NCBI GenBank assembly: GCA_951406725.2
Contig: OX597820.1
Coordinates: 84,320,001 to 84,384,000, forward strand
Direction: 5' to 3'
Source: Octopus vulgaris
Lineage: Eukaryota
Length of the DNA: 64,000 nt
Shown one piece after another: positions 38,950 to 39,662 of this stretch. A model generated the notes under the pieces. It saw only the letters and a program-made list of their open reading frames with translations. It was not told the DNA's origin and made no database searches. How positions within the stretch are numbered: position 1 is the first letter of the stretch; the number at the start of each line of letters is the position of its first letter. Made by a program: the position numbers and the translations under genes.

Positions 38950-39662
38950 CTTCTTGTTTCTTGTTAACACAACGCTTCTGTTGATATACCCTCCAGCATT
39001 CAAGATGTGTCTTGGGGGAAATTCCGAACCTGGCATCTTATTCCTAAGGTATATTGTTGTTGTTGCTGTTATTCTTCTTCTTCTTCTTCTTCTTCTTCTT
39101 CTTCTTCTTCTTCTTCTTATTATTATTATTATTATTATTATTATTATTATTATTATTATTATTATTATTATTAACTGCCTGGAATTGAACTCGAAATAAC
39201 GTAGTTAGTAGCCCGCGCTGTTAACACCGAGATTTCGAGTTCGATTCCAGGCAAGGAATGATTTACATAAATAATAATAATAATAATAATAATAATAATA
39301 ATAATAATAATAATAATAATAATAATAATAATAATAATAATAATAATAATAATAATAATAATAATAATAATAATAATAATAATAATAATAATGAGAAGGA
39401 GAAGAAGAAGAAGAAGAAGAAGAAGAAGAAGAAGAAGAAGAAGAAGAAGAAGAAGAAGAAGAAGAAGAAGAAGAAGAAGATCGAAAAATACCTTTGTAAT
39501 GGGAACCCAGGTTCGAAATTTACCCAAGGCATCTGATGAAGTAATGGAGGGTATATCAGCCGAAACATTGTGTTAGCAACAAACAAGATGAAGACAAATA
39601 TCCTTCTAATGAAAATAATATAAAAAATGTACATAATTCCTTATCTCTTATATATAGAACTG
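38950..39662. mobile_element. Head-to-head inverted pair of tRNA-like/(AAT)n(AAG)n/hammerhead cassettes (PLE-derived)
   Basis: Left arm is the diverged reverse complement of the right arm. Right arm has B-box gagttcgattcc, microsatellites, then CTGATGA...GAAA at 39533-39565. Confidence 0.8.

Follow-up and report, generated by a model that had tools for sequence, protein, structure and literature searches.

A tRNA-like head in the pseudo-LTR of a Penelope-type element of Octopus vulgaris, and a fold-back insertion of the same family

Penelope/Poseidon elements, including Penelope of D. virilis and PAc of the anole, are described as having an ORF for a reverse transcriptase (RT) with a C-terminal GIY-YIG endonuclease, direct and inverted pseudo-LTRs, an optional tail of 30-40 nt, a minimal hammerhead near the ORF start and an internal promoter in the repeat (PMC8557442, PMC4209133, PMC2377424, PMC11167929). 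In PAc, the hammerhead lies within the coding sequence (PMC11167929). The octopus element analysed here resembles them in these respects, with the internal promoter as a probable feature. However, its pseudo-LTR has a tRNA/SINE-derived head with an A-box and a B-box, and a microsatellite, and most of its copies begin at the head, whereas Penelope/Poseidon copies are variably truncated.

Sm-alpha and Sj-alpha of Schistosoma have a Pol III-type promoter followed by a hammerhead, an order that the boxed head and the tail of the octopus unit would reproduce, but PMC6765202 describes them as independent units in tandem, with canonical hammerheads that cut them; the octopus unit is part of an autonomous element, its hammerhead is minimal, and its copies are not cut there. 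Cassandra, Helenus and Ajax (TRIMp3) have a small-RNA-derived Pol III promoter in the terminal repeat, probably acquired through SINE insertion, as is proposed for the octopus head, but they are non-autonomous LTR elements (PMC10886601); the octopus pseudo-LTR belongs to a Penelope element with an ORF of its own. The animal non-LTR retrozymes, as outlined in bioRxiv 10.64898/2026.07.22.740005, are, like the octopus solo copies, non-coding, hammerhead-bearing derivatives of Penelope pseudo-LTRs, but they are arranged in direct tandem arrays; the octopus copies are dispersed, often in inverted pairs, and have a tRNA head. The octopus OR1 and OR2 CORE SINEs, apparently from the same host group, share a tRNA-derived head and have a CORE body in the published outline (PMC4824008, PMC4758252); the Penelope unit has no such body and is set apart from them by description, not by sequence. 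No report of a Penelope element with a tRNA head was found in the literature searched, with Repbase, Dfam and subscription papers outside the scope, and the octopus family may already have a repeat-database entry. A tRNA head in the pseudo-LTR that marks the start of most copies is a new variant worth testing.

The window analysed is a 64,000-nt stretch of O. vulgaris contig OX597820.1. The insertion occupies window positions 38922-39662 (the preliminary description had placed its start at 38950) and consists of two inverted arms with a spacer-less joint inside the tRNA-like segment. Profile coordinates refer to a 2585-nt family profile, in which A is L191:1742-4141 and B is the 185-nt tail. 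The features of the insertion are as follows.

38922-39062, minus strand: left-arm pseudo-LTR tail, profile B1-141, with a decayed hammerhead and without the optional 3' extension (122/141 identical to the family profile)
39054-39173, minus strand: left linker microsatellite, (AAT)19(AAG)15 followed by AAC-type units (repeat count)
39174-39225, minus strand: left head fragment with anticodon-like loop and B-box; its first base is the final one of the A-box, profile A2343 (profile alignment)
39222-39225, no strand: fold-back junction, a 4-nt microhomology of the D-loop with anticodon-loop sequence (sequence reading)
39222-39253, plus strand: right head fragment with a B-box at 39237-39248 (profile alignment)
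39270-39480, plus strand: right linker microsatellite, (AAT)41 and about 29 AAG units (repeat count)
39478-39662, plus strand: right-arm pseudo-LTR tail, profile B1-185, including the ORF-start ATG (39499), a minimal type I hammerhead core and the 3' extension (166/185 identical to the profile)

The homology between the two arms was far above chance (blastn E value of 1.5e-58), and the sequence and the arm alignment confirmed the earlier reading of two arms joined head-to-head, without a spacer, within the tRNA-like module. The arm described as keeping an anticodon-like loop and a B-box is the left one (loop at 39205-39211, B-box at 39181-39192); the right arm also has a B-box. A box scan found no A-box in either arm, and this copy therefore cannot be a type-2 Pol III source. 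As had been described, the right tail retains CTGATGA (39533) and GAAA (39562), and the left hammerhead is decayed. The right-arm core spans 39533-39569, with a predicted cut after 39569, and both stem II and stem III are disrupted. No signal was obtained when the decayed arms were folded. The reading frame that opens at the ATG at 39499 has a downstream frameshift at this locus. The expanded AAT/AAG linkers of the preliminary description are present in both arms here but are not a family trait, as AAG repeats were found in 2/60 family linkers, this locus included, and AAT/AAC is the norm. Because the rare AAG runs occur in both linkers, both arms are likely to derive from one template. The insertion is old, judging from the limited identity of its two tails to the profile. 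A junction like that at 39222-39225 is also present in two further loci (L002 and L236). It is a dead copy in the usual inverted form of Penelope insertions.

The head, microsatellite and hammerhead tail together are the 3' UTR and pseudo-LTR of an autonomous Penelope element encoding RT and GIY-YIG domains. Near-full copies were found by extending from a second inverted pair of the family in the window.

58935-59448, minus strand: left arm, covering the tail and extending into the part that encodes the endonuclease (similarity to the first pair)
59443-59884, plus strand: right arm, with ORF end, head with A-box, linker and tail (similarity to family copies)

The long copies join the ORF end, head, linker and tail. 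The element comprises a single ORF (RT and GIY-YIG-type endonuclease) with its stop at A2294, a tRNA-like head at A2326-2398 that begins approximately 25 nt past the stop codon and has its A-box at 2333, an AAT/AAC linker and the 185-nt tail. The tail encodes the first ~55 codons of the ORF. Its ATG (B23) shares the reading frame of the ORF (L308, L323), and the hammerhead thus lies within the coding sequence; the earlier statement that no coding sequence is present is wrong at the family level. The tail continues into the ORF start in tandems, and most of 30 ORF-start loci have a tail immediately before that start, forming direct pseudo-LTRs. Inverted partners were present at 65/116 loci selected by their tails and at 11/15 loci of a fixed-position sample. 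Inverted pairs, for whose frequency a census had been proposed, are routine, and the fold-back is the normal Penelope insertion form. The direct tandems, the inverted partners and the two classes of 3' end agree with the Penelope structure described in PMC8557442, and the proposed mobilisation by Penelope machinery was borne out.

The RVT_1 match in the family was below the cut-off (E value of 3.6e-4) and was obtained in 1/3 fragments; the longer relatives (n = 11) included seven at 52-69% identity and nine with RVT_1. Pfam GIY-YIG gave no match on the family fragments, but the C-terminus of the family aligns to the other Penelope element of the window, which does carry a Pfam GIY-YIG match. 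That second, unrelated Penelope-type element lies at 3282-4124 on the minus strand, with an upstream part to approximately 4330, and its 3' region is without A- and B-boxes.

The genome searched comprised 2.8 Gb in 227 contigs, in which the tail gave at least 2892 candidates. The 15 loci in 1.15 Mb sampled at fixed positions correspond to approximately 37,000 genome-wide (about 20,000-60,000). Penelope-like elements are given as 6.83% of an octopus genome in PMC13282606, and the accessible text of that paper has no occurrence of the term 'hammerhead'.

The identities of the tRNA and hammerhead rest on alignment and motif layout, because neither ARAGORN nor Rfam, at their own thresholds, called a tRNA or a hammerhead in the window or the family copies. 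The head of locus L029 was identical to genomic tRNA-Arg(TCG) at 44/73 positions without gaps, the best of 10 tRNAs tried, and an Arg tRNA ranked top for 5/5 heads compared, by a narrow margin. The head profile matched another SINE head of the same genome at 47/73 positions, with 25/26 identical in the box regions and 22/47 in the remainder. No A- or B-boxes were found in 37 distant Penelope 3' regions (at least 300 nt) or in the other Penelope element of the window, with 5/5 positive controls detected. We infer that the head was captured from a tRNA-derived SINE of the same genome. The claim of a tRNA-derived head thus stands for the family, in which the A- and B-boxes are intact, and the copy at 38922-39662 is without an A-box. 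An abundant tRNA-headed SINE (L077 at ~7196-7325, minus strand, with 34 blast hits in 1.15 Mb) is a candidate head donor, with a head 64% identical. Its body appears CORE-like, and OR1 and OR2 are of tRNA-Arg origin.

The hammerhead core was present in 107/115 tails, with the full motif in 34, and the family has the minimal type I layout seen in PMC4209133. The 3' ends fell into two classes, B141-172 or B182-185. The predicted cut lies after B92, and 1/217 arms (not tail-selected) ended within 5 nt of it. As the copies extend 50-95 nt beyond the predicted cut, hammerhead trimming does not set the 3' ends, contrary to the preliminary description. PMC11167929 reports uncut RNA as the main substrate, with internal priming, and the 3' ends of the family fit this. 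The 5' ends at B90-98 numbered 15 arms against approximately six expected, a post hoc count in which some rows come from one locus and which is confounded by an 8-bp palindrome; this excess could record hammerhead cleavage in vivo, or the palindrome, and is only a hint.

The census loci were picked by tail similarity only (117, minus one duplicate, giving 116); the best hits favour young copies, and the selection is independent of the 5' end. An anchored alignment of the 116 loci gave 112 head-bearing arms, both arms of 38922-39662 included, of which 26 begin within the head, past the A-box, 75 at A2301-2334 and 11 upstream of 2300. Of the 86 arms that reach the A-box, 75 have their first base in a 35-nt interval that includes the tRNA start, and 11 extend upstream; the 5' ends are strongly non-random and accumulate at the head, and the random distribution that would have counted against the preliminary description was not seen. 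Before any correction, 55 arms had raw starts at A2319-2334, and the end rate was approximately 10% per nt in that interval versus less than 1% upstream. The edge is sharp and lies approximately 13 nt ahead of the A-box, at G2320.

Raw starts at 2296-2321 were recorded for 29 arms, 22 of them classifiable: 13 run into an inverted head and nine into other sequence. Upstream bases of the long element were seen in only two of the 22 (L232 and L289; to 2312, by eye). Moving all 22 to 2320 gave 71/86, with a range of 69-73 when L232, L289 and four unclassified upstream arms were considered. In the fixed-position sample (1.15 Mb), 1/14 head arms reaches the ORF and 13/14 start at or within the head. 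Tandem junctions fall on G2320 in three loci (L324, L329 and L307), and 14 of the 28 pairs with both arms mapped overlap by 1-6 nt, with one arm at 2322 in 7/14. The contig depth recorded for run X15, which is not a copy number and whose DNA or RNA nature is unrecorded, was ~0.3 million just upstream, 0.8 million in the head and 1.8-3.3 million in the tail. A common single start point of the long copies was also considered and proved to be a query artefact, as long copies extend variably into the ORF.

Short copies exceed long ones by approximately 8 to 1. A comparison of 42 long with 99 short arms showed differences that were mostly CpG decay, no site that separates them and one shared consensus. 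Every base of the short unit is pseudo-LTR of the autonomous partner, of which the unit is a substring including the first codons. Because of this, and because short and long copies have no diagnostic non-CpG differences, a separate SINE subfamily was rejected and the free-standing, coding-free SINE of the preliminary description was not upheld. Among non-inverted copies, 1/13 had a 7-nt target-site repeat, versus 0.38 after shuffling (small sample). The copies were dispersed or inverted, with 1/217 ends near the cut, and not monomers bounded by hammerhead cleavage in direct arrays. No abundant master with a head-tail-ORF-stub tandem was found among the 40 scored candidates, of which only two had the junction of L324 and L329. 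Likewise, we saw no master that combines an intact ORF with a 5' repeat beginning at 2320, and only a few of the 30 ORF-start loci have a 5' repeat that starts at the head (L319, L323).

As a separate observation, L324 and L329 (C3, 1 Mb apart) have the same ORF-stub-to-head junction and different 5' structures, possibly as two insertions from one non-autonomous tandem source. In many loci among L302-L330, a tail and the initial 160-640 nt of the ORF are joined without a gap to another truncated copy, a structure that suggests template jumps onto RNAs ending early in the ORF.

To account for the 5' edge, we lean towards a captured SINE/tRNA-Arg head that serves as a Pol III promoter, with internally primed cDNA running off at the start site to give solo pseudo-LTR copies. 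A tRNA-derived SINE of the same genome would have supplied the head to an ancestor of the element. In a tandem, transcription of the upstream repeat would begin at approximately G2320, pass the hammerhead without its being cut and continue into the ORF, and the element protein would prime at the tail end and reach the RNA 5' end after ~300-400 nt. The priming step was shown in vitro for an anole Poseidon element (PMC11167929). The cDNA end would often fold back on 1-6 nt of microhomology and be copied, giving an inverted pair like that at 38922-39662. Solo copies are predicted to be dead ends, because they are without the ORF stretch bound by the protein in the experiments of PMC11167929.

A hard left edge that tails off over a short distance to the right is most simply explained by an RNA 5' end. 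The 13-nt gap from G2320 to the A-box presumably equals the spacing in rodent B2. The sense strand of the 2585-nt profile has no run of four T (P ~0.05 under a Markov null), and runs of four G are absent too. Real copies had 14 T4 runs in 20 kb. The 45 distant ORF pieces used as controls had 2.7-3.6 per kb, with none in 13/45; the deficit gives weak support to the Pol III reading. A longer chain is possible, and is put forward tentatively: a T4-free RNA from the tRNA head, a hammerhead that frees the ORF-bearing RNA, and internal priming would together have produced tens of thousands of SINE-like solo repeats. If so, the family would connect Penelope elements with hammerhead SINEs of the Sm-alpha type, as a missing link, and its genomic 5' ends would record the start site and, weakly, the in vivo hammerhead cut.

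The same edge might arise if all copies came from a long RNA on which the RT stalls or folds back at a quasi-palindromic hairpin (A2312-2335), the head being a SINE fragment that the 3' UTR carries as a passenger. The hairpin at A2309-2338 is the second most stable 30-nt window of the element (-10.8 kcal/mol) and covers the pile-up, a lesser peak of 5' ends at 2342 sits at the next hairpin, and the single consensus of short and long copies also speaks for this explanation. RNA-seq (three raw runs, ~6% of each) showed equal depth in both orientations and no pile of molecule starts at 2320, and this lack of a discrete RNA start favours the hairpin as well. The loose ends at A2319 (296, 209 and 231 reads) carry an inverted head and are transcribed genomic fold-backs, and the RNA-seq does not decide between promoter and hairpin. 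However, the hard edge at 2319-2323 falls in the middle of the 5' arm, at a point by which the stem would have opened, and 13 arms fold back on 3-4 bp at ~2320 versus only two that reach 2312, where the fold-back primer would be 9 bp. The promoter reading is favoured because of these two points. Furthermore, the stem II hairpin of the hammerhead (-8.1) is without an excess of 5' ends, the 8-bp palindrome of the tail shows at most a ~3-fold one, and the boxes are conserved relative to the donor-like SINE, although the stems are not. We regard the hairpin as the main alternative, and as less likely than the promoter.

A discrete RNA 5' end at about A2320 could also be made by Pol II, at an internal promoter of the pseudo-LTR, or by processing of the tRNA-like fold, and would explain the same end distribution. 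For Penelope of D. virilis, PMC2377424 reports an internal promoter of LINE-like type with one main start in the pseudo-LTR, and some of the octopus copies begin at tRNA +1 (five arms at 2326). Against this, intact A- and B-boxes stand just downstream of the edge and many arms retain 4-6 nt of leader; the cloverleaf is too decayed for ARAGORN, so RNase P processing is less favoured. Overall, we consider such an origin improbable. Still harder to sustain, in our judgement, is an independent, self-propagating Pol III SINE that is trimmed by the hammerhead and moved in trans by Penelope elements. The head with its boxes, the discrete 5' end, the ratio of short to long copies and the tandem junction shared by two loci would suit it, but neither SINE-specific sequence nor a diagnostic variant emerged from the long and short arms, the tail encodes part of the ORF, the 3' ends lie at B141-185 and not at the cut after B92, and the shared junction is confined to 2/40 scored candidates.

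The family touches on how Penelope elements are transcribed, on the origin of their pseudo-LTRs and inversions, and on what mobilises hammerhead SINEs such as Sm-alpha. Thousands of insertions with one 5' edge offer a natural read-out of where the template ends and of how fold-backs are primed. Should the head prove to be a Pol III promoter, the element would be a Penelope counterpart of Cassandra and Helenus, and a SINE-like family would have arisen from the repeat of an autonomous element itself. Annotation pipelines would probably class the octopus solo copies as SINEs.

Several other features were noted. Similar-looking degenerate frames on the minus strand of the window (14934-15254, 17107-17529 and 18340-18759) are possibly gag-like retroelement pieces, and the two of them that were scanned gave no Pfam match. 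The window also contains a 414-aa open frame at 32491-33735 on the plus strand, with a galactosyltransferase domain (E value of 5.5e-42) that has no intron breaks. Seven tRNA-Cys-like genes are clustered within 3 kb at L146. Finally, a Penelope-type ORF was identified at L443 in a contig filed as a Poribacteria MAG, and is probably host DNA in the bin.
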